Below are positions 2,230 to 60,442 of a stretch of 64,000 nucleotides of DNA, one piece after another. Both the position numbers and the translations under genes were made by a program. The notes under the pieces were generated by a model. It was given only the letters and a program-made list of their open reading frames with translations. It did no database searches and was not told where the DNA came from. The stretch's first letter is position 1. Each line of letters begins with the position of its first letter. The DNA lies in the NCBI GenBank assembly GCA_944390315.1, contig CALXPO010000025.1, positions 73,286 through 137,285 of the forward strand, in the 5' to 3' direction. Source of the stretch: an uncultured Alphaproteobacteria bacterium. Lineage in GTDB: Bacteria > Pseudomonadota > Alphaproteobacteria > RF32 > CAG-239.

Positions 2230-3582
2230 GTGATGATTAAAACAATCGGTATTATGACCGGAAATTCGCTGGATGCGGTTGATGCGGTTTTAACCTCTTT
2301 TGATGAAAAATCAATTAGGGATGAAGGGGCTTTTTCTTTAGCTTATCCGCCAGAGTTAAAAGAAAAATTTTTAGCTTTGAAAAATATGTTTTGCCGTCAA
2401 AACAATCATTTCGAAATTTTTCAAAGTGATTTTTTTAGAAAAACGGTTGATGAATATACCTGCTTGGTTGCCAAAACGGTAAATCTGCTTTTGGAAAAAT
2501 ATTTCGTTAACAAAAACGATATTGCCGCCATTGGATTTCACGGACAAACTTGTGACCATTTTCCACCGTCGATTGCCCAAGGAGGCGAGCCCTATACGCT
2601 ACAGGTCGGTGACGCACAAAAATTGGCGGATTTAACCGATATACCCGTAATTTATGATTTTCGCTCCGATGATATTATGAACGGCGGAGAAGGCGCACCG
2701 CTTGCACCGCTGCATAATTCGCATTTGGCTCAAGTGATGAAAAAACAGGGATTTGACAATGTCGCTTTTTGCAACGGCGGCAATACCGGAAATATTGCCG
2801 TTGTGAATAATAATCAAGTTGTCGGATGGGATATCGGCCCGTTTAATCATTTACCGGATTTGTTAATGCGCAAATATAAAAATTTGCCATATGATAAAAA
2901 TGGGGAATTTGGCAAAAAAGGAAAAGTTAATCTCGAATTGTTGCGGAAAATGTTTAATCATATTGCCGTTTGTGCCGACGGAGAAAATTTTTACCTCAAA
3001 ATGCCGCCTAAGTCTTCCGATCCTCATTGGTATCAGGAAATTTTTGACAGTACACTCAGTTTCGAGGATAATCTCAGAACGGCGGAATATCTCAGTGCTT
3101 ATGCTTTTGTGTATAATTTGCAGTATTTATCATCTGAAATTGAGTTGCCTTGTTTGTATCTTCTTTTTGGCGGCGGATGGAAAAATGTAGTGATTTTGGA
3201 GGATTTCAAAAAATTGCTTAAAAACAATCCGTTAATACTACCGGAACATATGCGGATTTTTGATGCCATATATCAACGTTTGCCAAAGGATATTGTCGTA
3301 GAGTTTAGTGATAAGTTCGGTTTTTCGGGCGAATATATGGAAGCACGAATTTTTGCCGATATGGCTTATGCAAAGATTTGCAATCAGCCGTTTTCTATGC
3401 CTGAAATCAGCGGCTGCCGTCAACCTACCGTCGATGGCGTGTTCGTCTTGCCCAAAAGCCCCAAAAACTACCTTTTGCAGGAATTGTTAGAACAGTACAA
3501 TAATCCTGCGCAACCTGAAAACAGATCGCTATTGTGGAGCAGAGCTTCTAAAGGTTGGCAACATTTCAGCGACGGCATTTAG
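2230..3582 (+). CDS. anmK: Anhydro-N-acetylmuramic acid kinase
   Basis: N-terminal GIMTGNSLDAVDAVL matches the AnmK GxMSGTSLDGxD signature, and FCNGGNTGNIAV matches the NxGGxxN motif. GTG/ATG start at 2230/2233. At 450 aa it is longer than the usual ~370 aa. Confidence 0.75.
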   Translation: MMIKTIGIMTGNSLDAVDAVLTSFDEKSIRDEGAFSLAYPPELKEKFLALKNMFCRQNNHFEIFQSDFFRKTVDEYTCLVAKTVNLLLEKYFVNKNDIAAIGFHGQTCDHFPPSIAQGGEPYTLQVGDAQKLADLTDIPVIYDFRSDDIMNGGEGAPLAPLHNSHLAQVMKKQGFDNVAFCNGGNTGNIAVVNNNQVVGWDIGPFNHLPDLLMRKYKNLPYDKNGEFGKKGKVNLELLRKMFNHIAVCADGENFYLKMPPKSSDPHWYQEIFDSTLSFEDNLRTAEYLSAYAFVYNLQYLSSEIELPCLYLLFGGGWKNVVILEDFKKLLKNNPLILPEHMRIFDAIYQRLPKDIVVEFSDKFGFSGEYMEARIFADMAYAKICNQPFSMPEISGCRQPTVDGVFVLPKSPKNYLLQELLEQYNNPAQPENRSLLWSRASKGWQHFSDGI

Positions 3583-5185
3583 CGAGCATATCCAATTCCG
3601 ATTTATAATAAGACGACGATACGCGGCTCATTCCAAGCAATGTGTGAAAAATGTTGTCATGAGAAAAATAATCAGATTTCATTTGGCGAATGCAGTCTAT
3701 GTCTATATTATTATCTCGAATGTAATCGGGAGAAAACCACAACAGGGTCGGAATGTGTTTTTGTTCATCCGGAGCTGTGTTATAGGGGGCAGAGTGTAAA
3801 TATATACCGTCTTTGCCCAAAGATTCTCCATGATCGGAAGTAAACAGCATCGCAATATTATATTTATCCTGTAAGGATTTGAGTTTTTTGATTGTTTCTG
3901 CAAGCATGTGAGATGTATAATAAATCGTATTATCATAGACGTTAATTAGTTCTTGTTCGCTGCATTTTTGCAAAAATTCTGTTTGGCAGATGGGTTTATA
4001 TATTTCAAATTCTTTAGGGTAGCGTAGGGCATAAAGCGGTCCGTGGCTGCCTCTTTGGTGCAAGACGACCAAAGTCGGCATATCTGTTGAAGTAATCTTG
4101 TTTGCAAAATTAGTTAGTAAAATTTCGTCCGGACATTCTTTAACCGTACAGAAACGTTCTTGCTCAATACGATTACAATTGTCCTTGCAATCGGTATTGT
4201 TTTCTCGCCAAAGGAGCTTATAACCGGCTTTATCTATAATATCGAGAACATTTTCTGTATATTTTTCACTTTCAGGCTTAAAATGTCTACGGTCATCGGG
4301 TGAAAAAATACATGGCATGGAAATGGCCGTTGCCGTGCCGCAAGAATAGAAATTGTCAAAATAAATAAATTCATCGGCATATTTTTCCAAGGGCTTATTT
4401 GTCGGACGATTGTATCCTGATAATGAAAAACTGGCATCACGAGCAGATTCCCCGATGATGACGACAATTAAATTAGGTTTTGAATTTTCTTTTTGTGGCA
4501 ACATTTTGGCATCTTGTGAAATTTGTTTAAGTTCAATGCCGATATATTGCATTTTTATTTTAGTGACAGAGATGATTGCTCCGATGTAGTTGACAGGGAT
4601 AAGTGCATTTTTTAATGGCTTGTGTTGTCTCAAAACCTTTGGATTATGATATATGGCACAACCGATTATAAAAGATGTTATCAGAGCAGCGATAATACTT
4701 GTTATGAGTTTGATTTTCAATTCTTGTCTGAACGGGGCAAAAACAATATTTGTCTTTAGTATTAAATATGATGGAATAACGGCCAAACATATCAGATAAC
4801 CCAACATTTTTAGGCTAAGTAAGTCTGCTACTTCGTAAACATCTGTTTGTAGGACGTTTAGTAACATAATTTTGTCAATTACCACGCCATAGGCATTCAT
4901 AAAATAAAACGCAGCCGTATTTGCAAAGCAAAAGAATATAGCTAAACCTTTTACCAAGCGACGACAAAATAATATGGAGAGAATAACATACAAAGCACAG
5001 AATATACATAAAGCAACAAACAATCCTCCCCACAGAGAATCATTATGTTCACAAGCGGCCGTTGTAAAAGGAATGTTAAATGCCAGCATTGTAAATAAGC
5101 AATAAAGCAAATTAAAAAGTGATGATGAAATTTGCCAAAAGTATTTCTTGCTTTGTGGTAATATCATATTTTTTCTTTCATTCAA
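3566..5185 (-). CDS. Phosphoethanolamine transferase, EptA/sulfatase family
   Basis: About 180 aa of N-terminal TM helices, then NLIVVIIGESARDASFSLSGYNRPTN and TSDHGESLG, which are typical of lipid A / core phosphoethanolamine transferases. Confidence 0.8.
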   Translation of the reverse strand: MNERKNMILPQSKKYFWQISSSLFNLLYCLFTMLAFNIPFTTAACEHNDSLWGGLFVALCIFCALYVILSILFCRRLVKGLAIFFCFANTAAFYFMNAYGVVIDKIMLLNVLQTDVYEVADLLSLKMLGYLICLAVIPSYLILKTNIVFAPFRQELKIKLITSIIAALITSFIIGCAIYHNPKVLRQHKPLKNALIPVNYIGAIISVTKIKMQYIGIELKQISQDAKMLPQKENSKPNLIVVIIGESARDASFSLSGYNRPTNKPLEKYADEFIYFDNFYSCGTATAISMPCIFSPDDRRHFKPESEKYTENVLDIIDKAGYKLLWRENNTDCKDNCNRIEQERFCTVKECPDEILLTNFANKITSTDMPTLVVLHQRGSHGPLYALRYPKEFEIYKPICQTEFLQKCSEQELINVYDNTIYYTSHMLAETIKKLKSLQDKYNIAMLFTSDHGESLGKDGIYLHSAPYNTAPDEQKHIPTLLWFSPDYIRDNNIDIDCIRQMKSDYFSHDNIFHTLLGMSRVSSSYYKSELDMLAKCRR

Positions 5186-30968: not shown

Positions 30969-31712
30969 TTGATGGCTAGAAAATTTACTCAAGAAGAGAA
31001 AGAAATTCTCCGTATGGAATGGCGTCGACGCAACCCAGAAGAAGCAGCAAGACGCGAAGCCAAAAAAAATGCAGCCGAACAAGAAAGGTTGCGCAAGGAA
31101 AACGAAGAAATAGAACAAGAAAACTATTGCTTTTCCGCGCTCCCCAGAGATGAAAAGGCTGTAGAAGCGTATCGCAAAAAAATCAGCGGGTTATTGGAAC
31201 ATATTACCTTGAAAAGAGAGCAATATGTTCAGGATCGAAATTTGGAAGCCTCAAGGCTCTCAAACGATGTCCGAAAAGATTTCATAGCTTACGTCAGTCG
31301 TAACTATGACGGACATAACCAAGCTATCGCCGGCGTTATCTGCGCTTTATTGGTCGAGGGTCTACGATATCCTGACAAAGAGTTGAATTCCTTTTCTTTC
31401 AACTTTTTGAAGGATAGGGAGATTGAAAATCCGAACTGGATATTGTGGATATCAATCTGGAGTATGGAATTTGTGCCGTTGGATGCGGTACGTTTAATGC
31501 TCAAGATGGAAAACGGCAGTTTTCAGGCTATTGATACTTTCAGAGATTTAATGAGAATCGTAGCTCCAAAGGTATTATGGCATCTCGAACAAGAGTACAA
31601 AAGGCTGGAATGGTCAAAGAAAATTGATGATCCGGTTATCCGTGAAAGAGAAATAGCGAGAAAAACAAAAAGAATCTCCTATTTCAAAGCGCTGATTAAA
31701 GCGTACGAATAA
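30969..31712 (+). CDS. Hypothetical protein with a highly charged coiled-coil N-terminus (orphan)
   Basis: 247 aa beginning KFTQEEKEILRMEWRRRNPEEAARREAKKNAAEQERLRKENEEIEQE, with a Trp-rich hydrophobic patch (WILWISIWSMEF). Followed by a strong terminator. Confidence 0.45.
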   Translation: MMARKFTQEEKEILRMEWRRRNPEEAARREAKKNAAEQERLRKENEEIEQENYCFSALPRDEKAVEAYRKKISGLLEHITLKREQYVQDRNLEASRLSNDVRKDFIAYVSRNYDGHNQAIAGVICALLVEGLRYPDKELNSFSFNFLKDREIENPNWILWISIWSMEFVPLDAVRLMLKMENGSFQAIDTFRDLMRIVAPKVLWHLEQEYKRLEWSKKIDDPVIREREIARKTKRISYFKALIKAYE

Positions 31713-44896: not shown

Positions 44897-45379
44897 ATGA
44901 CAGTCAGAAATATACTTCTTACGCTTGCCAAAAGAAAAAAATTTGATAAAGAACTCTTTATTGAAAAATTGGTAAAAATAAATGGCTTAAACGAAAAGCA
45001 ATGGAAAGACAATTGCTTTGCGCTGATAGAGCAAATCACGCGTATTCTGCGGGGAAGAAATATAGCCATAGGTCGTTACATTACCAAATACGAAAAAATG
45101 CTGAATGAGCAAAAAGATTTATGCGACAGCAATTTAAAATCATTTTATAAAAAAGAAATTAATCGATTGAAAAAAGAAAAACAAAAAGAAAATTTGTCTA
45201 TCAGCATAAAAGATGCTATCGACATGTTGTCCATGGAAGGATATCAGATAAAAAAAGAAGGAACGGCCCCCAGTAATGACATGATGCTAAATGTTCTGAA
45301 ATATCATTTTACAATGATGGATAACGATGCAAAAAAGAAATTTTTGCAAAAAATAAATGAATATTTTTTGCACGGCTGA
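44897..45379 (+). CDS. Hypothetical protein (orphan, lysine-rich)
   Basis: 160-aa ORF in an AT-rich islet between tRNA-His plus a repeat copy and recO. Confidence 0.4.
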   Translation: MTVRNILLTLAKRKKFDKELFIEKLVKINGLNEKQWKDNCFALIEQITRILRGRNIAIGRYITKYEKMLNEQKDLCDSNLKSFYKKEINRLKKEKQKENLSISIKDAIDMLSMEGYQIKKEGTAPSNDMMLNVLKYHFTMMDNDAKKKFLQKINEYFLHG

Positions 45380-46194: not shown

Positions 46195-48426
46195 ATGCAA
46201 GAAAATTCAGAAAAAATTAAAAATGTGCAGTTGGCGGAAGAACTGAGCAAACGCTATCTTTCTTATGCCATGTCTACTATCGTGTCACGCTCATTGCCTG
46301 ATGTTCGTGATGGTCTAAAACCGGTACACAGACGGTTGCTCTATGCTATGCGCCAACTTCATCTTGATCCAAAATCAGGATTTAAAAAATGCGCACGCGT
46401 CGTCGGTGATGTTATCGGTAAATATCACCCGCACGGCGATAGCGCCGTTTATGGTGCCATGGTGCGTTTGGCTCAAGATTTTTCAGTGCGTTATCCTTTG
46501 GTTGACGGGCAGGGCAACTTTGGCAATATAGATGGCGACGGAGCCGCCGCCATGCGCTATACCGAGGCAAGATTAACCGAATTTGCCATCGCAATGATGG
46601 AAGGCTTGAATGATAATGCCGTTGATTTTATGGAAACATATGACGGCGAAGAAAATGAGCCGGTTGTAATGCCGTCCATGGTCCCAAATTTGCTCTGTAA
46701 CGGTTCGGCCGGTATTGCCGTCGGTATGGCTACAAATATTCCGCCGCATAATCTGAGCGAAGTCAGCGATGCACTTTTGTATCTTATTGAAAATCCGGAT
46801 TGCGATATTGAGCCTTTAGTCAGAAGAATAAAAGGTCCCGATTTTCCGACCGGCGGTTTTATTGTTGATAAATTTGAAAGTATTTTAGATACTTATCGTC
46901 AAGGGAAGGGTGTCTTTCGTATTCGCGCCAAATGGGAAAAAGAAGATTTGGGACACGGGCAATATCAAATTGTGGTTACCGAAATTCCCTATATGGTGCA
47001 AAAAGCCAAATTGGTTGAGAAAATAGCATCACTGCTTTTAGATAAAAAAATACCTTTACTCAATGATATAAGAGATGAATCTTCCCACGATATCCGTATT
47101 GTCTTAGAACCTAAAAGCCGTTTGGTCGATGCCAACCTGTTAATGGAACATTTGTTCAAACAAACAGAATTGGAAAGCCGTTTTAATATGAATATGAACG
47201 TGCTGGATTCTGACGGTGTACCTCGGGTTATGTCCATCAAAGAAGTTTTAAGAGAATTCTTAAATCATCGTCATACCGTTTTGATAAGACGTTCAAATTA
47301 TCGATTGGAAAAAATTAATTACCGTCTGGAAATCTTAAACGGTTATTTGATTGCTTATCTCAACTTAGACAGAATTATTCAAATTATCCGGGAAGAAGAA
47401 GACCCCAAACAAGTGATGATGAAAGAATTTTCACTTACGGATAATCAGGCAGAAGCTATTTTGAATATGAAATTGCGTTCCTTGCGTAAATTGGAAGAAA
47501 GTCAAATCCGCGAAGAACATGATGAATTATCGGAAGAGAAAGCTCAGTTGGAAGATTTATTATCCAACGAAGATAAGCGTTGGGCGGCAATTGCGGCAGA
47601 AATCAAACAAATGAAAGAAAAATTCGGCAAAAAGACGGCTCTCGGTCGTCGTCGTACCGAATTTGCCGAGGCTCCCGCAGAAATCGAAGTCCCGCTTGAG
47701 GCGTTGATTGAAAAAGAACCTATAACAATTATATTGTCGCAAAAAGGCTGGATAAGAAGCCTAAAAGGGCATGTTAATTTGAACGACGATTTTAAGTTCA
47801 AAGATGACGATGCTTTGCAAATTGCTTTACATGCACAAACAACTGACAAATTGGTTATTATGGACAGTTCGGGTAAGTTTTTCAATATTTCAGCCAATGA
47901 AATACCGAGCGGAAGAGGATTTGGACAACCGCTGCGTTTAATGGTGGATATAGCCAACAATGATGATGTTGTTACAATGTTTGTCTTTGAACCGAAGGCA
48001 TCATATTTGGTTGCATCAAAACGCGGTTACGGCTTTATTGTAGATGAAAATCATATTATTGCCCAAACACGCAACGGACGCAAGATTATGAATGTGGCTG
48101 ACGGGGATAGGGCAATGATGTGTGTCAAAGTCAGCGGAGATATGGTTGCAATTGTCGGTGATAACCGTAAATTGTTAGTATTCAAAACCGAAGAGATTCC
48201 GACTTTGGCACGCGGACGCGGTGTCGGTTTGCAAAAATATAAAGACGCGACTTTGTCAGATATTCAATTTTTCAATGAAAATGAAGGATTTAGCTTCAGT
48301 CGTTCGGGAGGAATCAGCACCGAAAAAGATTTGTTGACTTGGTTAGGGCATCGAGCTCAGGTCGGAAAGCAAGTTCCTTTCGGTTTTCCGAAGAATAATA
48401 AATTTTTCAATCAAAACAATGAATAA
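46195..48426 (+). CDS. parC: DNA topoisomerase IV subunit A
   Basis: [19 protein letters not shown]...[20 protein letters not shown] (catalytic Tyr region). 743 aa with no GyrA-box, which favours ParC over GyrA. Confidence 0.85.
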
Positions 48427-48481
48427 AAGTTTCTGATTGTATCAAAATAGGGGAAATGCTTAAGTATTTCCTCTTTTTTTA

Positions 48482-48575
48482 TAGTTGCCTTAGCATTTAA
48501 CGCCGGCAATCACGGTCAAAACGCATGGTTTTTAGCTGATTTAGAACCCACAGTTGACTGGGAATGTCTACCGGC
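48482..48575. repeat. Intergenic repeat element, partial (3' module only)
   Basis: tagttgcctta...cacggtcaaaacgcatggtttttagctgatttagaacccacagtt... Confidence 0.55.
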
Positions 48576-49277
48576 AGCCCGACAAGAAAATTGAGATTTT
48601 TTGTTTTCGTCCTTATTATAGTGCAATTTACAAAACTTATTCATAATAAAAATACGAATAAGTTTTGGGTAGGGAATTGGAAGCATCATGCTTGTGGTCA
48701 AAAATTTCGGACAATCTTTATTACTATAGACGACAAGGAGAAATATAATGGAATTTCTCAATCAAATTTTGCAGAGCCGGCAAAAAATCATAATAATAAT
48801 CAACAGATTATGCTAACAATTTAACAGACGAGGCGGTGAGTTTTGTCTGTCTTATACACTATATATATTTGTCGTATAATCTATATTATGTATAGTTTGA
48901 TATTCGGAGATAATAAATTGAAATTAAAATATATTATTCAAATTTCTAACGCCAATTTCACTTATTTTTAACAACAAATTCAAAAAATATGCTCATATTA
49001 TCAAAATCTCGACCTCTATCTCATCTGCGCACCACAAATCTGCACCTGTCGAACACATTTCATAACTTTTTAATAACACAACATATTCAATAAATAACTT
49101 GTCGATAACTTCAATCTCATCGCAATATCTTACACCTTTGCAATTCGGCTTGAGATAAATTGTCTTATAAAACATTTTTATTAAGTTGAAATGCAATATA
49201 TCCACTTGAATAATTTGATTATTAAAATGAATTCAAATTATCCTCGACACAGTCTTAAATCTTTCTGTAAATTGCCG

Positions 49278-50864
49278 TTAAACTGCCGCGGCAATCAATG
49301 TTTGGGTATATTTTTGTTGCGGACGTTCAAAAATCTGTTCACAGTCGCCAAACTCGACCTTTTTTCCGTCTTTTAAAACCAAAATGCAATCAGACATGGC
49401 CCGAATGGCATTCATATCATGTGAGATAAAAATATAGCTGAGGTTTCTTCTTTGTTGAATTTCTTGCAATAATTTGATTATTTGGGCTTGAATGGTGACA
49501 TCCAAAGCCGATGTCGGTTCATCTAAAATCAGTAATTTAGGTTCCAAAATCAAAGCTCGGGCAATGGCTATTCTTTGCCTCTGTCCACCGGAAAATTCGT
49601 GTGGATATTTTTGCAAATCGTCTTCTTTCAGACCGGTTTCTTCAATTGTTTTCAAAACCTTGGTATAACGTTCCGCTGAGCTTAAATGCGGATAATGGAT
49701 TTTTAATCCTTCACTGACAATCTCTTCAATATTCATGCGAGGATTCAATGAATTATAGGGATCTTGAAAAACAATCTGAATATCTTTACAAAGACTTTTT
49801 CGTTGCTTGTTCGAGAGTTCCGATAAGTTTTGATTTTCAAAAAATATCTTGCCGTTATATGGAATTAATCCGATTATGGACGAACCTAATGTTGTCTTTC
49901 CCGAACCTGATTCTCCGACTATACCTATTGTTTCGCCTTGATTGAGTTTGAATGAAACATTATTTACGGCTTTTAATTCTTCGGTTACCCTTCCCCATAA
50001 ATTCTTTTTGAGCGGAAAAGTGACATTAACGTTTTTTAACTCAAGCAACATTTTTCCAAAATTATGCTTATTTTTTCTTAGCATATGGGCATTAATTAAT
50101 TCTTTGGTATAAGGATGCCGTGGGGTTTCAAAAACCTGTTGCAGGCTTCCCTGCTCTACGATTTTTCCCTGTTTCATAACTAAAACATCATCTGCAACTT
50201 TACGAATAACATTTAGGTCATGACTAATAAAAATAATAGACATATCCAATTTTTTCTTTATATCTATCAACAACTTAATTATCTGTTCTTGAACTGTTAC
50301 ATCAAGTGCCGTCGTCGGTTCGTCCGCAATCAAAATATCCGGTTGGTTGGCAATGGCCATTGCAATCATAACTCTTTGTCTTTGTCCGCCGGAAAGTTCA
50401 AATGGATAAGATTTCATGCGTTTTGCCGCATTTTGAATTCCGGTCATCTTTAATAATTTTAATGTTTCTTCTCTGGCTGCTGCTTCGCTGAAACCGCGGT
50501 GAAGCTGCAAAACTTCCATAACTTGCTTTTCAATGGTATGAAGAGGATTTAGAGAAGACATAGGTTCTTGAAAAATATAAGAAATCTTATTTCCTCGAAT
50601 GTGCCTGAATTGCTCATCCGATATTTTGGTTAAATCCTGTCCCGCAAATATAATCGAACTTTTTTCCCCTAAAACAGCTTTAGGATATGGTAATAGCCCC
50701 AACAAAGACATGGCCGTTACCGATTTTCCCGAACCGGATTCCCCGACTATGCCAAGAACTTTTCCTTTTTCAAGAGAAAACGAAAGATTATCAGCGGCAA
50801 GATTTGTACTGCCGTCATCATTTCTGAAAGCGATAGATAAATTCTTGACTGTTAACAAACTCAT
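49278..50864 (-). CDS. ABC transporter ATP-binding protein with two fused ATPase domains (YejF/OppDF-like)
   Basis: Two Walker A motifs (GESGSGKS twice), two LSGGQRQR signatures, and C-terminal oligopeptide-type extensions. Confidence 0.85.
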   Translation of the reverse strand: MSLLTVKNLSIAFRNDDGSTNLAADNLSFSLEKGKVLGIVGESGSGKSVTAMSLLGLLPYPKAVLGEKSSIIFAGQDLTKISDEQFRHIRGNKISYIFQEPMSSLNPLHTIEKQVMEVLQLHRGFSEAAAREETLKLLKMTGIQNAAKRMKSYPFELSGGQRQRVMIAMAIANQPDILIADEPTTALDVTVQEQIIKLLIDIKKKLDMSIIFISHDLNVIRKVADDVLVMKQGKIVEQGSLQQVFETPRHPYTKELINAHMLRKNKHNFGKMLLELKNVNVTFPLKKNLWGRVTEELKAVNNVSFKLNQGETIGIVGESGSGKTTLGSSIIGLIPYNGKIFFENQNLSELSNKQRKSLCKDIQIVFQDPYNSLNPRMNIEEIVSEGLKIHYPHLSSAERYTKVLKTIEETGLKEDDLQKYPHEFSGGQRQRIAIARALILEPKLLILDEPTSALDVTIQAQIIKLLQEIQQRRNLSYIFISHDMNAIRAMSDCILVLKDGKKVEFGDCEQIFERPQQKYTQTLIAAAV

Positions 50865-51919
50865 CTCTTATTCTTTCTTGTATCAAATGCGTCACGAACG
50901 CCCTCGCCTATAAATATAAGCAATGTCAATAGTGTTGATAAAACAATAAATATTGAAATACCAATCCAGGGAGCTTGTAAATTGTCTTTGCCCTGACGTA
51001 CCAAATCTCCTAACGACGGATATTCGTGTGATAGTCCTAAACCTAAAAAATCAAGTGCCGTAAGCGAAACTATTGCCTCTGACAACAAAAAAGGAATAAA
51101 AGTTATTGTTGACACCAAAGCATTAGGTAAAATATGACGCCATATAATTTGCCAATTGCTGACACCCATGACGCGTGCAGCTTTGACAAATTCAAAATTA
51201 CGCGTACGCATAAATTCTGCCCGCACCATTCCCGTAAGCGATGTCCATGAAAAAAACAACAAAATGACCAACAAACTCCAAAAGGTTGGTAAAAATATAC
51301 TTGATACGATAATTAAAATAAACAATTGAGGCAAAGATTCCCATATCTCAATAAATCTTTGCATAATGATATCCAACTTTCCGCCGAAATACCCTTGAAC
51401 GGCTCCTGCCAAAATTCCGATAACCGAAGAAACAAATGTTAGAATAAATGCAAAAACAATCGACAAGCGCAATCCATACAAAAGTCTGGCAACAATATCC
51501 CTGCCCTCGTCATCCGTTCCCAGCCAATGTCGAGCCGAAGGAGCAGCCGGCGTCGGCGCATCCATTTCCATATCCACAGTGTTAAAAGAAAAAGGTATTA
51601 TCGGCATTATCAACCAACCATGCTGTGCTATATTATTGCGAATATAAGGATCCGTATAGTCTGCGGGTGTCGGAAAATCACCTCCAAAATCGGCATCTGT
51701 ATATTCTTTTAGCAAAGGAAAGAAAAAATCTCCTTTATAATTTACCAGCAAAGGCTTATCGTTTGCCAAGACTTCTGCAAACAAACTCAATATGAAAGTG
51801 ATAATCAATAAATACAAAGCCCAAACAGCCCGTTTGTTACGGCAAAACCTGTAATACATTCGGGTAATATTGGTTTTCTTTTGTTTATCCGGTATATTAT
51901 TGAGCAACGGCAGCACCAT
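50861..51919 (-). CDS. ABC transporter permease, OppC/YejE-like
   Basis: Long N-terminal periplasmic loop, six TM helices, and an EAA-like loop (…AARVMGVSNWQIIWRHILPN…). Its stop overlaps the ATPase start by 4 nt. Confidence 0.8.
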   Translation of the reverse strand: MVLPLLNNIPDKQKKTNITRMYYRFCRNKRAVWALYLLIITFILSLFAEVLANDKPLLVNYKGDFFFPLLKEYTDADFGGDFPTPADYTDPYIRNNIAQHGWLIMPIIPFSFNTVDMEMDAPTPAAPSARHWLGTDDEGRDIVARLLYGLRLSIVFAFILTFVSSVIGILAGAVQGYFGGKLDIIMQRFIEIWESLPQLFILIIVSSIFLPTFWSLLVILLFFSWTSLTGMVRAEFMRTRNFEFVKAARVMGVSNWQIIWRHILPNALVSTITFIPFLLSEAIVSLTALDFLGLGLSHEYPSLGDLVRQGKDNLQAPWIGISIFIVLSTLLTLLIFIGEGVRDAFDTRKNKR

Positions 51920-53939
51920 TTACCTGTGACAGAGGAATAACTTCAGCTTCGCTTCCAACTTGAATTTCGTTGGTCATAATTTTTTGCTCGCTGATGTTTG
52001 TATTTTCAAGCGGCAACAATCCTGATGCAGACGGCAATTCCGCCGTTTCAACCAAATCCGCTTTTCCCAAAGGAACTAAAAGTGATTTTTCGGGTGCTCT
52101 GTAATTCAGTTTATGCCACTCTTTGTACCAACGATTAAATTCCTGCAACGATTTTTGCGCAATGGTATTTGTAAAAGCAACGCTTGCCAAACTTTCTGTT
52201 ACGGATTTTTTGATGCTTTTAGAGAGTTTTGTGTGAGCAAATTCTTCACATTTTGGTCCGTTGTTTAATTGATTATTCAGAATATCTTCAACTGCGCATA
52301 TAGACTTGTTTATAACAAATTTTTTGCTACCTGCCGTTTTGACCGCCAAAGCTGTTAATTGTCCGTTTATAAAGCGTTCTGCATAATCATCGTTGTTGGA
52401 ACCAATCATATCGTCCATACCTGCCAAACCTTCGATAATAACACTGATATTTTGAGAATTCGGCAATTGACCAAGACGTTCCATCATTTTTTCTAATTGT
52501 CCGAATAAGCACATTGTTTGTTTCATATAGGCGTTTCTTTTTTCTAAGAAAGACTTATTTTCTACCCACGGTTGATTATATTTCACCAACCATTCATCCA
52601 TGCCTTTCAAACGGCACATGTCATCATAGACATACATATCCGAAGGCAAATCCAGATATATAAAATAGGCTTGGTTTCCTTTATCTTTTTCTATATCATC
52701 GAGCATTAAGTCTAAGGCCTTATAAGAATTGATGACATAAAGTTTTTTGTAAGTTGTCCCTAAAATCGGCGTTTTGGCCGGATTATAAAACGTTTTGGCA
52801 GATCCGTATAGATTTTCCATAATATCTTCATTATTAAACCAACCGGTACTTTCAAGCCATTGTATGGCCAAAATCTTAATTTTATCTCCCGTTGAGAATT
52901 GAAGTGAATCAATATTCACAGGAAAATTAACTTTTGTCACGCAACGATTGACGGCATCTTGGTTATTCTTTTTGCATAAGTTAATTCCGTGAGATTGATA
53001 AGCACTTATTTTGTAGCCTTTTTCTTTCAGACCATCGTATACAATATTATCTTTGAGGTAGGCCTCAAAATCTTCTCGATTTTTAAATTGCCAATATCCG
53101 TTTTTCAACACTTGATTTTGTAAAAAAGATATATCCTCACCTGCGGTGTAATTAAGATTGCGAGCCGCATTAATAAACTGATTTGTGCTTGTGATATAAG
53201 CATTCGGATAAAGTTTGAAACCGTTTTTAGCATAAAAAGCCAACATAATTTTCATGAGTTGTTCTTTATAGATTTCCGAAGCATCTTTTTTATCCAACGT
53301 TGCCAGATAGCTATATGAAGGAGCATTTGCAATCATAACCGTAATCAGTTTTTGGGAATCATCACCGACAGGAGCCGAAACCATATCCGGATTAATAACG
53401 AACTCACTACGATCTTGGTTTTGATTAACCAGAACGGCACCAAAGCAAAAGACAACCGTCAGCACTAACAGAGCTTTGATACGCTTGGGTGTAAGAGCCA
53501 AAATTGCAAAGACAATCACTCCGGCCACAACAGCGCTGAATACTTCGGTACTTTCTATATTAAAGTTGGCAAATTGACAAATAAAAGCATAAGTAACAAA
53601 ACCTGTAACAAGTGCGGTTAAAATGTATAGTATAATACTTAAAAAGGAAAGGCAGAAATACAAAAGGGTAATTGTAAGAGCCATACCTATCAAGAAATAA
53701 AGCACTTCGGGACGCAGATGGCTTGTTCCGCTAAAAATATTGAATGGACCCGAGGAAGCAAATAAAATAAAATCCATACCAAGCAATGATATGGTTATCA
53801 AACAACAAGAAAAGAAGTTAAACAAATAATTCCATGTTGATGAATTAAACAAGTTTTTTTTGCTTTTTCTGGGGGCCGGTCTAAAGCCAAGATTGGGTTG
53901 AATATCTTCGGGACGACCATCGATGACTACATCTTCCAT
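51897..53939 (-). CDS. Large polytopic membrane protein of unknown function with a big extracytoplasmic domain
   Basis: The track ORF runs to 54149 but would overlap rpsD by 83 nt. The first in-frame Met clear of rpsD is MEDVVIDG at 53939, which gives about 680 aa. Four to five N-terminal TM helices precede a soluble domain of about 480 aa. The 3' end overlaps the permease start. Confidence 0.5.
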   Translation of the reverse strand: MEDVVIDGRPEDIQPNLGFRPAPRKSKKNLFNSSTWNYLFNFFSCCLITISLLGMDFILFASSGPFNIFSGTSHLRPEVLYFLIGMALTITLLYFCLSFLSIILYILTALVTGFVTYAFICQFANFNIESTEVFSAVVAGVIVFAILALTPKRIKALLVLTVVFCFGAVLVNQNQDRSEFVINPDMVSAPVGDDSQKLITVMIANAPSYSYLATLDKKDASEIYKEQLMKIMLAFYAKNGFKLYPNAYITSTNQFINAARNLNYTAGEDISFLQNQVLKNGYWQFKNREDFEAYLKDNIVYDGLKEKGYKISAYQSHGINLCKKNNQDAVNRCVTKVNFPVNIDSLQFSTGDKIKILAIQWLESTGWFNNEDIMENLYGSAKTFYNPAKTPILGTTYKKLYVINSYKALDLMLDDIEKDKGNQAYFIYLDLPSDMYVYDDMCRLKGMDEWLVKYNQPWVENKSFLEKRNAYMKQTMCLFGQLEKMMERLGQLPNSQNISVIIEGLAGMDDMIGSNNDDYAERFINGQLTALAVKTAGSKKFVINKSICAVEDILNNQLNNGPKCEEFAHTKLSKSIKKSVTESLASVAFTNTIAQKSLQEFNRWYKEWHKLNYRAPEKSLLVPLGKADLVETAELPSASGLLPLENTNISEQKIMTNEIQVGSEAEVIPLSQVNGAAVAQ

Positions 53940-54013
53940 AATTTTGTTCCATAATTGTGTGGTTGAATAAAAAATATAGGTTATATAAGCATATTTATAA
54001 TAATTTTTAAAGC

Positions 54014-54050
54014 AAAAATCCCCAAGATTACACAATCTTGGGGATTTTTG
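54014..54050. terminator. Rho-independent terminator of rpsD (bidirectional shape)
   Basis: aaaaatccccaagatt-acaca-atcttggggattttt is a perfect 16-bp stem immediately 3' of rpsD. Confidence 0.7.
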
Positions 54051-54066
54051 TTGTTTTTCTTTATGA

Positions 54067-54678
54067 TTATCTGGAGTAGAACTCGATAACCAAGCTGGGT
54101 TCCATAACGGAAGCATAAGGAACATCGTCAAACTTAGGTACAAAAGCATATTTTACGCTAAATTTAGAATCAGCTTCCAGATAAGAAGGAACTTCATGCA
54201 AATTAGATTCCAAAGCAGCTAAGACCATAGGCATTTGCTGAGCTTTATCTTTAACGGAGATAACATCACCGGCTTTAACCATATAGGACGGGATATTAAC
54301 TCTTTTACCATTTACCAAGATATGACCATGGTTTACGAATTGACGAGCTGCGAAAATTGTCGGAACAAATTTTGCTTTGTAGACCAAGTTGTCCAAACGA
54401 GATTCCAAAATACCAATCAAGTTTTCGGCAGCATCACCACGTCTTCTGGTGGCTTCAGCATAATATTTACGGAATTGTTTTTCAGAAACGTTACCGTAAT
54501 ATGTTTTTAATCTTTGTTTAGCTTGTAATTGTTCACCATAGTCGGTTAATTTCTTTTTACGAGCACCGTGTTGACCCGGACCATATTCGCGTTTAAGCAG
54601 AGGGCTTTTCGGGTCTCCCCACAAATTGGCATGCAAACTACGGTTTGTCTTTTTCTTAGCTTTTACAATACTTTTCAT
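54067..54678 (-). CDS. rpsD: 30S ribosomal protein S4
   Basis: [30 protein letters not shown]...NLVYKAKF...[19 protein letters not shown]. 203 aa. Confidence 0.9.
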
Positions 54679-54857
54679 TCAAGTTTTCCTTTTTGATTTA
54701 TTTTAACGTTATTGTCCCGGTAGTCTTTATATTGAATATAAAGCGGGGTATAATTACCCACATTTCCAGAAGTGTCTGAAATCTAATCTAATTTGAAAAA
54801 AAAATCAAGCATTTTCTTGTTGAAAAATACGAATTATTTTAATTATGCCTTAACCCT

Positions 54858-55610
54858 TTATCGGGACAATTGTTTCAATTGTTGTGCTTTGTCTTTTGGC
54901 AAGACTATACCGCATGACACAACAAATTTTAATCCATCTTCAACAGACATATCAAGCATTATAACATCTTCTTTGGGCACAAAAATCAAAAATCCCGAAG
55001 TAGGATTGGGAGTGGTCGGAATAAATATATTGAGCATATCTTGATTGATTTTGCTTTTAACTTCTCCTTCGGTATTGCCGCTTACAAAGCCCAAAATCCA
55101 AATTCCCTTGCGTGGATATTCCAACAGAACAACTTGTCGGAAGGATTGATTCTTGTTAGAAAACAGCGTTTCAAAAACCTGCTTCAGTAAAGAATATATA
55201 CTTGAAATAACCGGCATTCTTTTGACAATCCAGTCGCCTAAACGTACAAAAAAACTCCCGACAAAACCAGCCGCAAACATTCCGATGAGTATCAACGCTA
55301 CAAGAAGCAATAAAACACCAAGCCCCGGAATGGTAAACGGAATATTATTATAATATTCTTTAATTTGCGGCGGCAACAGCTTTTCTACTCCGTTATCTAT
55401 CCACATAATAATCTGATATGCCATATAAAATGTAATGGATACCGGAGCCGTTACGAGTATTCCCGTAAAAAAATATGCTCTTACCTTCGCTCCGAGTTGC
55501 ATAAAAACTCGTTGCTCTTTTTCTCGTATCTTTTTGATGTGCTCTGCTCTTCTTTTGGTCTTTTCCTGATTTTTGATAAATGACATGTTACCCTTCTTTC
55601 GCATCTTCAA
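54858..55610 (-). CDS. DUF502-family membrane protein
   Basis: Two TM helices, then the conserved ...NPTSGFLIFVP... block. The start is uncertain between 55610 and 55586; the later start clears the recJ stop. Confidence 0.55.
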   Translation of the reverse strand: MKMRKKGNMSFIKNQEKTKRRAEHIKKIREKEQRVFMQLGAKVRAYFFTGILVTAPVSITFYMAYQIIMWIDNGVEKLLPPQIKEYYNNIPFTIPGLGVLLLLVALILIGMFAAGFVGSFFVRLGDWIVKRMPVISSIYSLLKQVFETLFSNKNQSFRQVVLLEYPRKGIWILGFVSGNTEGEVKSKINQDMLNIFIPTTPNPTSGFLIFVPKEDVIMLDMSVEDGLKFVVSCGIVLPKDKAQQLKQLSR

Positions 55611-58382: not shown

Positions 58383-58796
58383 TTATTTATGGGCAAAGGT
58401 AAAATAGCGGTGCAGCAGATAAGTTAAAATTGTAATTCCTATGGTATAAAATCCTTGTGCAAGCAATTCATTTATTTTATATATATCAACCATGATAAAC
58501 ATTGCAAAATAGTTTAAGACCATCGTTGTTAAATAAACTCCCCACCCTTTACTATATTCTTTATACCAAATTCCGTTTGAGCGAAAAACATAGTAACGCA
58601 TTGTAAAAATAGACACGTTGACAGAAATAACATAGCCAATCCAAATGGCATTTTTATACGACAATTGTAACACAATTAGTAAGAAAGCAAAAACGCCATA
58701 GCCAAAAACGGTATTAAACCCGCCAACTAATAAAAATCTGAGCTTTTCAGGCAAAATAAACCAAATTTTTTCAATTTTCAGATACAAGTTTATCAT
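58383..58796 (-). CDS. GtrA-family small membrane protein (candidate polyprenyl-phosphate-sugar flippase)
   Basis: 137 aa with four TM helices. LRFLLVGGFNTVFGYGVFAFL is a GtrA-like N-terminus. Confidence 0.65.
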   Translation of the reverse strand: MINLYLKIEKIWFILPEKLRFLLVGGFNTVFGYGVFAFLLIVLQLSYKNAIWIGYVISVNVSIFTMRYYVFRSNGIWYKEYSKGWGVYLTTMVLNYFAMFIMVDIYKINELLAQGFYTIGITILTYLLHRYFTFAHK

Positions 58797-60429
58797 TTTC
58801 AGGCTCTATGTAGTAGATTTTGTACACTTTATTTTCAAATATCAGTTGGTAATCCGATTTTGGTTCAAAATCCGGAGAATTGATTTTATGTACGACAAAA
58901 TAATTACCGGCTTGGGGGCTTTTTTGAATGACTTTATAAGAATATTCATCCTCATCAACATGAAGATTTTTCAATGGGACTTCCGCTATCACCGAAATAT
59001 CGAGATTAGGAAAATTATATTTTAAGGCAGAAGCCCAACCGGTAACTTTCCACCATTTTCTCGGGGTGGGCTCATTAGAATACAGATATACGCTTACGGG
59101 ATTTTTTTGGGCTCGTGAAGCAATATATTCAGCAATTTGTCTTCTGTATATACCCTCTTCCCGATGATAAACGTGGTAATTGACGTACCCCGAATACAAA
59201 ACCGTCGGTATAAATAAAATAGCTAAAATCATCTTGTTTTGAACAAATGTAAAAATATAGGCTACGGCAAAAACAACCGTCAGATAGAGGTAATATGATT
59301 TATAATAATCCGGAATTACCACTATTTTCAAAACAAAGACAACCACCAGGCTCAAAATCGTTATTCCTAGCAAAGTTCCTTCTGTCAAAAAATATATCTT
59401 ATCGTATCGGCGTTGAAATATTTTGAACAACAATATCATCAAAGCACATGCATTTAATATTAACGCGAGCTTATTTATGCTTACGATTATCGACACATCG
59501 GCTCTATGGGTATCTAAATAAGGCGTCCCCAGAGTATTGTCCTGAAGGAGTAAGAAACAATTCATGAAAATGAATAAGCTCCAAAATAACAAATATTCAA
59601 TCGGCATTTTTGAAATTGTTTTGAAAGGAGAAAAAAACGAAGAAATATTTATCTGTCCCGAAAAAATGCGATATATGATAAAAAATCCCAACAATCCGGC
59701 ATAAAATAAAGTTACCGTTTCTTTCATATAAATAGCGATGTTGGCACAAATCAAAAACCATAACAAATTTCCAAATCGCCCTGTTTGATTAAATTTATTA
59801 AGTGAAATCAAGCTCAATATGACAAAAATCATGATAAGCTGTTCCGAAAAAATAGGATTATTAATGACAAACACCGCCGGTATAAAGTTAACTATTGCAA
59901 GAACAATCAAACGTCTTGTTATCGGTATAAACTCAAAAAATCGGTATAACAAATACAGCAAAAACAGTTGCTTCAAAATAATCCAACAATAGATAATTAT
60001 AAAATTATGGCTAACGGCATAAATGAAATTATTATCCATTCCGGCAAGCGGCGTAAAACGAATCGGATCAATAATGGATAATATACCGTATTTCATTGCG
60101 ACTTGAACATCAACCGCCATTAAATCAAAATTATTGAGTGTCGATGCTTCTTGAGATAAAGTGGCAAAACAGTATAGTCCTATAGATAGAAGTAACAAAC
60201 CAAAAGAAAACCATTTGGCTGCAGGGGCAGATGAAAAATCATATTTTTCTTCAGGTAAAAAAGAAACTTTTTCATATTTAAAAAAGAATTTGACTAATAA
60301 CCAGTTAAGAAAAAGAATTACTGAAACGACTAATGCATAATTTCCAAGATTGTTCCACGTCAGAAAAAACTCAAAATGATTATATATTGCAGATATAATA
60401 TCATCGTTAAATAACGGAAAGTTTCTCAT
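58771..60429 (-). CDS. Polytopic membrane glycosyltransferase-like protein, paralog A (candidate GT-C / ArnT-PMT-GtrC-like)
   Basis: 552 aa with about 11-13 TM helices and a C-terminal soluble domain of about 110 aa. Paralogous to the adjacent 529-aa protein (shared blocks IRFTPLAGMDNNFIYAVSHNFII versus MRFNPIAGIDHNIVYGISHNYIA). I cannot confirm the family from motifs alone. Confidence 0.5.
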   Translation of the reverse strand: MRNFPLFNDDIISAIYNHFEFFLTWNNLGNYALVVSVILFLNWLLVKFFFKYEKVSFLPEEKYDFSSAPAAKWFSFGLLLLSIGLYCFATLSQEASTLNNFDLMAVDVQVAMKYGILSIIDPIRFTPLAGMDNNFIYAVSHNFIIIYCWIILKQLFLLYLLYRFFEFIPITRRLIVLAIVNFIPAVFVINNPIFSEQLIMIFVILSLISLNKFNQTGRFGNLLWFLICANIAIYMKETVTLFYAGLLGFFIIYRIFSGQINISSFFSPFKTISKMPIEYLLFWSLFIFMNCFLLLQDNTLGTPYLDTHRADVSIIVSINKLALILNACALMILLFKIFQRRYDKIYFLTEGTLLGITILSLVVVFVLKIVVIPDYYKSYYLYLTVVFAVAYIFTFVQNKMILAILFIPTVLYSGYVNYHVYHREEGIYRRQIAEYIASRAQKNPVSVYLYSNEPTPRKWWKVTGWASALKYNFPNLDISVIAEVPLKNLHVDEDEYSYKVIQKSPQAGNYFVVHKINSPDFEPKSDYQLIFENKVYKIYYIEPENDKLVSEN

Positions 60430-60442
60430 GTCCAGCTCTCTT

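Follow-up and report, generated by a model that had tools for sequence, protein, structure and literature searches.

A 64,000-nt stretch of contig CALXPO010000025.1 (positions 73,286 to 137,285), assembled from an uncultured alphaproteobacterium and called the window below, carries on its minus strand three closely packed genes. They encode an inner-membrane protein from a nameless family (protein X), a permease similar to YejE and a double ATPase similar to YejF. We propose, at a probability of roughly 0.4, that a single operon of these three genes encodes a non-canonical Yej-type ATP-binding cassette (ABC) module, in which X acts as the periplasmic ligand-binding partner of the YejE-YejF core. 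The conserved linkage is strong gene-neighbourhood evidence for a functional unit, beyond chance synteny, and X, YejE and YejF probably work together in a way not yet described.

For the analysis of this linkage, 88 related loci were obtained from protein-identity look-ups and one scan of GTDB species representatives (80 loci from GTDB), and counts were made on the 86 in which the stop codon of X lies on the contig. In 86/86 loci the gene after X, on its strand, is yejE, and yejF comes next wherever the contig extends. The distance from the X stop to the start of the YejE match ranges from -26 to +116 nt, with a median of 35, and the seeming gaps between X and yejE in some loci correspond to a longer acidic tail of X. 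The proposal of an earlier note on this DNA that the three genes constitute a single operon agrees with their tight packing and with the conservation of the unit in all loci counted. Sequence identity of X across the loci is between 23% and 68%, and the YejE and YejF proteins are 43-56% identical to those of E. coli. The region downstream of yejF varies by locus (abhydrolase/parC, autotransporter or prophage), and rpsD, which precedes X in most loci, is absent in about 20.

Judged by record title, all but one of the 86 loci counted are gut or rumen metagenome-assembled genomes (MAGs) of Alphaproteobacteria or proteobacteria. Among the GTDB loci this applies to 79 of 80, with the labels Alphaproteobacteria, proteobacteria, 'Azospirillum sp.', Rhodospirillales, 'Candidatus Scatocola', 'uncultured Acetobacter sp.' and CAG:495. 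Hosts of the MAGs that bear the locus include human, mouse, chicken, ruminants and horse. The exception, L022 (CAVIWQ010000057.1), is labeled 'Bacteroidaceae bacterium' and shows the order rpsD-X-yejE-yejF with an X match of 43% and an RpsD 88% identical; it is probably a mis-binned alphaproteobacterial contig. In one further locus, L053 (7890-8790), the YejE match is truncated (185 vs. about 350 bits) and yejF follows 288 nt later, the sole such case in the 86 loci, for which a frameshift, a pseudogene or an assembly error is possible. We also observed in L004 (15187-22070) a prophage-like block (Lambda_Bor, Hydrolase_2, Collar, P2_C) just downstream of yejF, where the sister contig L003 has parC-recO, indicative of a rearrangement point downstream of the module.

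The transporter genes themselves appear complete. YejF contains two PF00005 stretches by Pfam, the Walker A motifs GESGSGKS and GESGSGKT, two LSGGQRQR signatures and the motifs ILIADEPT and LLILDEPT. The double ATPase recognized in the earlier note is thus confirmed, although the motif GESGSGKS does not occur twice as had been stated, the second Walker A being GESGSGKT. The top NCBIfam model for YejF was NF011713 YejF (686 bits, below the cutoff of 834), and the protein is 49% identical to E. coli YejF over 526 amino acids (AA), each half best matching the corresponding E. coli half. The identity between the two halves, which we compared for convergence as a homodimeric permease might cause it, is 47% vs. 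43% in E. coli. YejE contains PF00528 (BPD_transp_1) and PF12911 (OppC_N) by Pfam and is 52% identical to E. coli YejE over its full length. Its top NCBIfam model was NF011596 / PRK15021 'microcin C ABC transporter permease' with 430 bits (cutoff 439), and the next family reached 216 bits. The periplasmic segments of YejE are fairly similar to those of the E. coli protein, with conservation moderately lower at E. coli residues 81-120. By sequence, both proteins are intact and orthologous to their E. coli counterparts.

The textbook ABC importer of the PepT family (Opp, Dpp, Yej, Sap) has five components, and its permeases normally form an OppB/OppC heterodimer. The absence of a binding protein and of a second permease, pointed out in the earlier note, holds within the 64-kb window: tblastn with E. 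coli queries detected neither YejA nor YejB, the only YejB match being a weak paralogous one inside yejE, and a Pfam sweep of the other large open reading frames (ORFs) of the window revealed no SBP_bac_5 and no second BPD_transp_1 domain. In the 88 related loci, the YejB query matched only inside yejE by tblastn, and the flanks of 6-10 kb, about 1.1 Mb altogether, contained no YejA or YejB in any of the loci. The other genes of the window serve housekeeping and the envelope; they encode AnmK, a true EptA, MipZ, a D-Ala-D-Ala carboxypeptidase, FadL, Aas, MgtE, LspA, MutL, RecO, ParC, RecJ and GT2/GtrA proteins, and the sole major facilitator superfamily gene is TsgA-like, not AmpG. A role in muropeptide recycling was considered from the presence of AnmK, which is a lead only, as AnmK shows only that salvage of anhydro-N-acetylmuramic acid (anhydro-MurNAc) exists.

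The extents of the three genes, of the parts of X and of the upstream elements are collected in Table 1. On the minus strand the order is rpsD, hairpin, X, yejE and yejF. The overlaps comprise 4 nt between yejE and yejF (50861-50864) and 23 nt between X and yejE (51897-51919), so the ORFs, the 680-AA size of X and both overlaps are as the earlier note described them. With a YejE start at the second Met (51859) instead, the X-yejE overlap turns into a 37-nt gap. The longest ORF for X covers 51897-54149 of the minus strand. We consider the ATG at 53939 as the sensible start, because the longer ORF crosses the rpsD stop and the hairpin, and because the Met at this position is residue 1 in at least 90% of 30 homologues. 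The hairpin is likely the rpsD terminator, in which case transcription of X-yejEF starts from a promoter of its own or depends on read-through. No RNA elements were detected by Rfam in 48000-55000. parC and yejF converge on a stretch of approximately 850 nt (48427-49277) that contains short ORFs only (81-86 AA) and gave no Rfam match; small unannotated genes of 75-81 AA lie at the equivalent place in related loci (L003).

Table 1. Features of the X-yejE-yejF locus, in positions of the window (parts of X by AlphaFold2 model and alignment).
Feature	Position	Strand	Remarks
yejF-like gene, fused double ATPase, 528 AA	49278..50864	-	two oligo_HPY tails, two LSGGQ signatures
yejE-like gene, OppC-type permease, 352 AA	50861..51919	-	EAA-type loop FVKAARVMGVSNWQIIWRHILPN
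Gene X, 680-AA inner-membrane protein, unnamed family	51897..53939	-	predicted degenerate member of the alkaline-phosphatase/sulfatase superfamily
X residues 616-680, disordered acidic periplasmic tail	51900..52094	-	pLDDT <50; motif LLPLEN...EAEV..LS
X residues 180-612, periplasmic alpha/beta domain	52104..53402	-	predicted sulfatase/LtaS/EptA/PbgA fold, catalytic residues lost, six invariant Cys
X residues 34-172, five transmembrane helices	53424..53840	-	N-terminus in, C-terminus out (model)
Hairpin, 19 bp, G+C-containing, between rpsD stop and X start	54011..54052		T-runs on both strands
rpsD	54067-54678	-	stop at 54067; upstream of X

Searches with X in Pfam (E up to 0.1), NCBIfam and PDB sequence profiles returned no meaningful match; weak matches to diacylglycerol kinase and CUTL were judged to be noise. 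Clustered at 90% identity, the close family of X comprises 30 clusters whose identity to X runs from 100% to 30%. The sole source-named cluster among these comes from an Alphaproteobacteria MAG, and one cluster of the closer set (P0019) bears the name 'YIP1 family protein'. An exhaustive phmmer search from X gave 375 representative clusters at E 1e-3 or better, and the names among the clusters of 10 distant relatives were 'hypothetical protein', 'acyltransferase' and 'arylsulfatase A-like enzyme'.

The structure of X was modeled with AlphaFold2 on the 30-sequence alignment (pLDDT, the predicted local distance difference test, 79; pTM, the predicted template modeling score, 0.78). The model shows a basic disordered N-terminus, five transmembrane (TM) helices (34-62, 77-96, 101-123, 131-149 and 152-172), where the earlier note had counted four or five, a periplasmic alpha/beta domain and a disordered acidic tail. 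The predicted cytoplasmic loops are 2-4 residues long, and the basic N-terminus together with the PKRIK loop agrees with the positive-inside rule for the topology inferred. In the periplasmic turn between TM3 and TM4 lies a conserved QFANF motif, with F123 invariant and Q122 conserved to 93% across 84 sequences. The periplasmic domain has, in the model, the core alpha/beta fold of the alkaline-phosphatase/sulfatase superfamily, and on this basis X has the architecture of the membrane-anchored LtaS/EptA/PbgA group of that superfamily.

Comparison of the C-terminal tails across loci revealed that the tail motif of X is present in its closer subclade only and not family-wide. By subclade (L001-L089), we observed 'LPPLEEK..I....VAPEAKVESLS' in the closer clade and 'VLEAPVA.G..LSPEELKKQY...NIEVKVIE' in another, with none common to all. 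The extra length of X relatives of 900-1500 AA consists of a low-complexity acidic or Ala/Glu/Lys-rich tail. In the relatives of 1100-1500 AA, found on metagenome contigs (L091 2183-6646; L093 6001-9576; P0146, P0148, P0137), several of them with Alphaproteobacteria MAG names, these periplasmic tails are very long, with acidic or Ala/Glu/Lys-rich repeats ('AEAKALAEKQA'), and end in a conserved 'ETYIFIER...RFKK' block; they resemble periplasm-spanning linkers. No natural X-YejE or X-YejF fusion was found among the 197 relatives collected.

As for the active site, motif alignment suggests that X descends from active enzymes via stepwise motif loss. The most distant relatives, of about 550 AA, have ILDEH where strand 1 ends, Ser/Thr on the nucleophile helix, IPHxPY and HGDHGS, and one of them clearly exceeds the Pfam Sulfatase threshold with 35 bits; the intermediate relatives of 1100-1500 AA have LADH / PHYPY / GDKG; in X and its close relatives the motifs read PNAPSY / LPSDMY / GLSGMDD, with Asn253-Gln254 at the expected nucleophile. 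X itself has no PF00884 match at the gathering score in Pfam. When the 10 distant relatives linked to X by phmmer were scanned, three reached the PF00884 cutoff of 25 bits (P0174 with 35.4; P0161 and P0173 with 25.7), six remained below it and one had no match.

To this we added column counts over 84 unique X orthologues, with residues mapped by sequence alignment and secondary structure. Position 205, corresponding to the metal carboxylate, is occupied by N in 57 sequences, D in 7, S in 6, K in 5, and E and G in 3 each. The nucleophile positions 253/254 have N or D followed by P, A or Q, with T at 254 in only five sequences. Position 433, the His of PHxP, is S or A, and positions 509/510, the Asp-His pair, are not conserved and never His. 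At these catalytic positions there is no conserved carboxylate, Ser/Thr/Cys or His across the 84 orthologues. The residues that are invariant or nearly so are N257, N263, D430, P432, Y438, D439 and several Trp and Gly. The invariant polar ones occupy sequence positions that correspond to the former active-site motifs and suggest a remodelled binding pocket in X. Six Cys (C322, C333, C442, C477, C548 and C564) are invariant too, consistent with a periplasmic disulfide-bonded domain.

The earlier note had seen in X a block loosely parallel to the sulfatase fold of EptA, with the catalytic residues replaced, and this is correct by predicted fold, motif alignment and column counts. The blocks on which it relied, KLITVMIANAPSYSYLATL in X and LIVVIIGESARDASFSLSGY in the EptA-like ORF 3566-5185, are both present. 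That ORF (minus strand) encodes an EptA-type phosphoethanolamine transferase (PF00884 196 bits, EptA_B_N 123 bits) with GESAR / CGTAT / SDHGE intact, so that the genome has both active and degenerate sulfatase-fold membrane proteins. The EptA gene converges on a gene for an AnmK-like anhydro-MurNAc kinase (2230-3582, plus strand), with an overlap of about 17 nt.

We compared the locus with known Yej systems and with known membrane proteins of this fold. YejABEF takes up peptides, microcin C and phazolicin. The module shares with YejABEF and YejBEF-YepA the orthologous YejE and YejF, the fused double ATPase, the OppC-type permease with an EAA loop and the overlapping genes. It differs in the absence of yejA and yejB from the operon, the window and the flanks of the 86 related loci, in the sulfatase-fold membrane protein that takes their place and in the scores of YejE and YejF, which fall slightly below the NCBIfam equivalog/subfamily cutoffs. 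YejBEF-YepA is known as an alphaproteobacterial muropeptide importer (PMC9790009, PMC10128002).

Among sulfatase-fold membrane proteins, X most invites comparison with PbgA/YejM/LapC. In Enterobacteria this is a lipopolysaccharide (LPS)-binding inner-membrane regulator of LpxC turnover that binds LPS at an interfacial domain and antagonises LapB/FtsH, its partner being the latter and not an ABC transporter, and E. coli yejM lies outside the yejABEF operon. X shares with it five TM helices followed by a periplasmic domain of the alkaline-phosphatase superfamily with a degenerate metal site. PbgA/YejM is described as homologous to LtaS and EptA, with metal ligands not conserved, and as LPS-binding (PMC12444477). 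At the same time, hhalign of the X family against E. coli LapC gave a probability of only 13.8% over 117 columns, X has no DUF3413 or Sulfatase match in Pfam or NCBIfam, and E. coli LapC had no tblastn match in the window and related loci. The closest relatives of X make up a separate uncharacterised set, in which the source-named ones come from Alphaproteobacteria MAGs, and X differs further by its six invariant periplasmic Cys and its acidic tail. From the phospho-headgroup transferases LtaS, LtaP, EptA, EptC, MCR-1, BcsG and GacH, X is distinguished by the lack of the Thr nucleophile and of the Glu/Asp/His metal site that define them; it also lacks the EptA_B_N domain and a Pfam Sulfatase match. 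As hhalign of the X family against the EptA of the window gave nil, membership of X in the YejM or EptA family was dropped on these hhalign results, and at the sequence level X does not belong to the LtaS family either.

Taken as a mechanism, X would be a membrane-tethered periplasmic partner of the YejE-YejF core and a non-catalytic ligand-binding protein, as PbgA is for LPS, with a pocket formed by the invariant N257, N263, D430, P432, Y438 and D439 in place of the old active site. It may recognise or present an envelope- or host-derived ligand, or gate the transporter, and would thereby replace an operon-encoded YejA. The permease would be either a homodimer of YejE or YejE paired with a protein encoded at another site. 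Judged from the substrates of YejABEF and YejBEF-YepA, a peptide or a muropeptide-type molecule is the most plausible cargo. The stricter version, in which X is a true transporter subunit that replaces both the binding protein and the second permease gene in a complex of X + (YejE)2 + YejF, we regard as unlikely. The second-permease role suggested for X in the earlier note finds no counterpart in the model, where the cytoplasmic loops appear too short to offer anything like a coupling helix.

Several observations weigh against a ligand-binding partnership of X with YejE-YejF. A rigid sulfatase-fold domain is unlike a Venus-flytrap binding protein, the similarity of the YejE periplasmic loops to those of E. 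coli fits a conventional binding protein still docking there, and the heterodimeric norm of PepT-family permeases has to be set against searches for YejA and YejB that covered the window and flanks. The adjacency of rpsD and X is widely conserved too, although nothing obvious connects the two in function, and inertia may account for part of the synteny. Distant X relatives are unlinked to yejEF: one follows rpsD with no yejEF, others lie between TPR-methyltransferase and glutaredoxin genes, and one that bears the motifs adjoins unrelated redox genes. In two of the long-tailed relatives (P0148 in L091 and P0137 in L093), the gene stands between a divergent TPR-methyltransferase gene and a glutaredoxin gene. 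It follows from these contexts that the ancestral role of X was independent of the transporter, and that the X-yejEF association arose once, in the gut-clade ancestor, in the lineage whose X lacks all catalytic motifs. Unlinked binding proteins have a precedent in alphaproteobacterial Yej systems, where Agrobacterium YejBEF works with YepA (PMC9790009).

The unlinked relatives, the YepA precedent and the conserved YejE periplasmic segments also speak for the main alternative, which we rate as only slightly less probable than the partnership. Here X is co-transcribed but functionally separate and would sense or regulate at the envelope, as an analogue of PbgA/LapC or as some other protein that binds lipid or LPS, and YejE-YejF, an ordinary importer of peptides or muropeptides, is completed by an unlinked YejB-type permease and one or more binding proteins. 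So does the architecture that X has in common with LPS-binding PbgA, together with the same loss of metal ligands (PMC12444477). Against this separation speak the adjacency kept in every locus counted, with overlapping or near-touching genes and deep divergence of X, while the other neighbours turn over, and the lack of YejB or YejA in the related flanks. It would, moreover, split the two permease genes of one PepT-family transporter, which is unusual. Alternatively, X might be an enzyme with a non-canonical active site, for instance a metal-dependent hydrolase using D430, D439 and N257, which would release a product from an envelope or host substrate in the periplasm for import by YejEF. The clustering of the most conserved polar residues at positions homologous to the old active-site motifs could be read in this way. 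All characterised superfamily members, however, need the catalytic residues that X has lost. With no conserved Ser, Thr or Cys nucleophile, a variable position 205 and positions 509/510 that are never His, we consider an enzyme quite improbable, even if a Mg-dependent phosphatase activity is reported for YejM despite its lost ligands, according to a study cited in PMC12444477.

Two further explanations receive little weight. A gene-decay intermediate, as the earlier note had allowed, in which a reduced genome is losing its yejABEF operon and yejEF is what is left, would agree with the local absence of yejA and yejB and with the truncated YejE match and 288-nt gap of L053. Yet YejE and YejF are full length and free of stops in all long-enough loci except L053, their Walker A/B, signature and EAA motifs are intact, and a relic would not stay intact over such depth of divergence; decay is therefore very improbable. 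As to a fused binding-protein/permease polypeptide, which would make this an ordinary transporter, the only point in its favor is the position of X upstream of yejE, the usual place of yejA and yejB. Profile comparison by hhalign gave probabilities of 0.9% against YejA and 2.7% against YejB, so that X is neither binding protein nor permease, in agreement with the lack of such motifs pointed out in the earlier note; the predicted fold is that of sulfatases and alkaline phosphatases and not of periplasmic binding proteins, and the five helices of the TM domain are arranged as in LtaS, EptA and PbgA, with minimal cytoplasmic loops. By fold and profile, a YejA/YejB-type fusion is ruled out, and we see practically no chance for it.

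Apart from the module, the window contains other features of note. An envelope-glycosylation cluster extends over 58383-62848 of the minus strand, with a GT2 glycosyltransferase (62036-62848) and a GtrA-like protein (58383-58796) at its ends. Between these, 60443-62032 and 58771-60429 (minus strand) encode two proteins in succession (about 530-550 AA), neither with a match in Pfam or NCBIfam, the second visibly rich in hydrophobic stretches; they could be GT-C/ArnT-like transferases. A permuted (two-piece) transfer-messenger RNA gene (18872-19197, minus strand) with the tag peptide ANDNELAPVALAA adjoins an SspB gene (18395-18850), which fits an alphaproteobacterial origin. ORFs of 160-555 AA with no Pfam match lie at 16322-17989 (minus), 30969-31712 (plus) and 44897-45379 (plus), the first two also with no NCBIfam match.

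Through Yej, bacteria take up peptide antibiotics and resist antimicrobial peptides of the host, and Alphaproteobacteria also recycle their cell wall. A Yej transporter that is encoded throughout a lineage with no binding protein and no second permease in its operon, and in firm linkage with a degenerate protein similar to LtaS/EptA/PbgA, points either to an undescribed way to feed or control such a transporter, or else to an undescribed link of envelope-lipid sensing to the uptake of peptides or muropeptides. X defines a family of at least 375 sequence clusters, nameless in Pfam and NCBIfam, and its relatives form a clean evolutionary series from active through partly to fully degenerate proteins, which would capture the birth of a pseudoenzyme. 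Should X prove to be a subunit, the architecture would be new among type I (binding-protein-dependent) ABC importers, and pseudoenzymes of the alkaline-phosphatase superfamily would gain a new function, across a lineage of mammalian and avian gut Alphaproteobacteria. As the carriers are common uncultured bacteria of the gut and rumen, any function established here would be new for that group.

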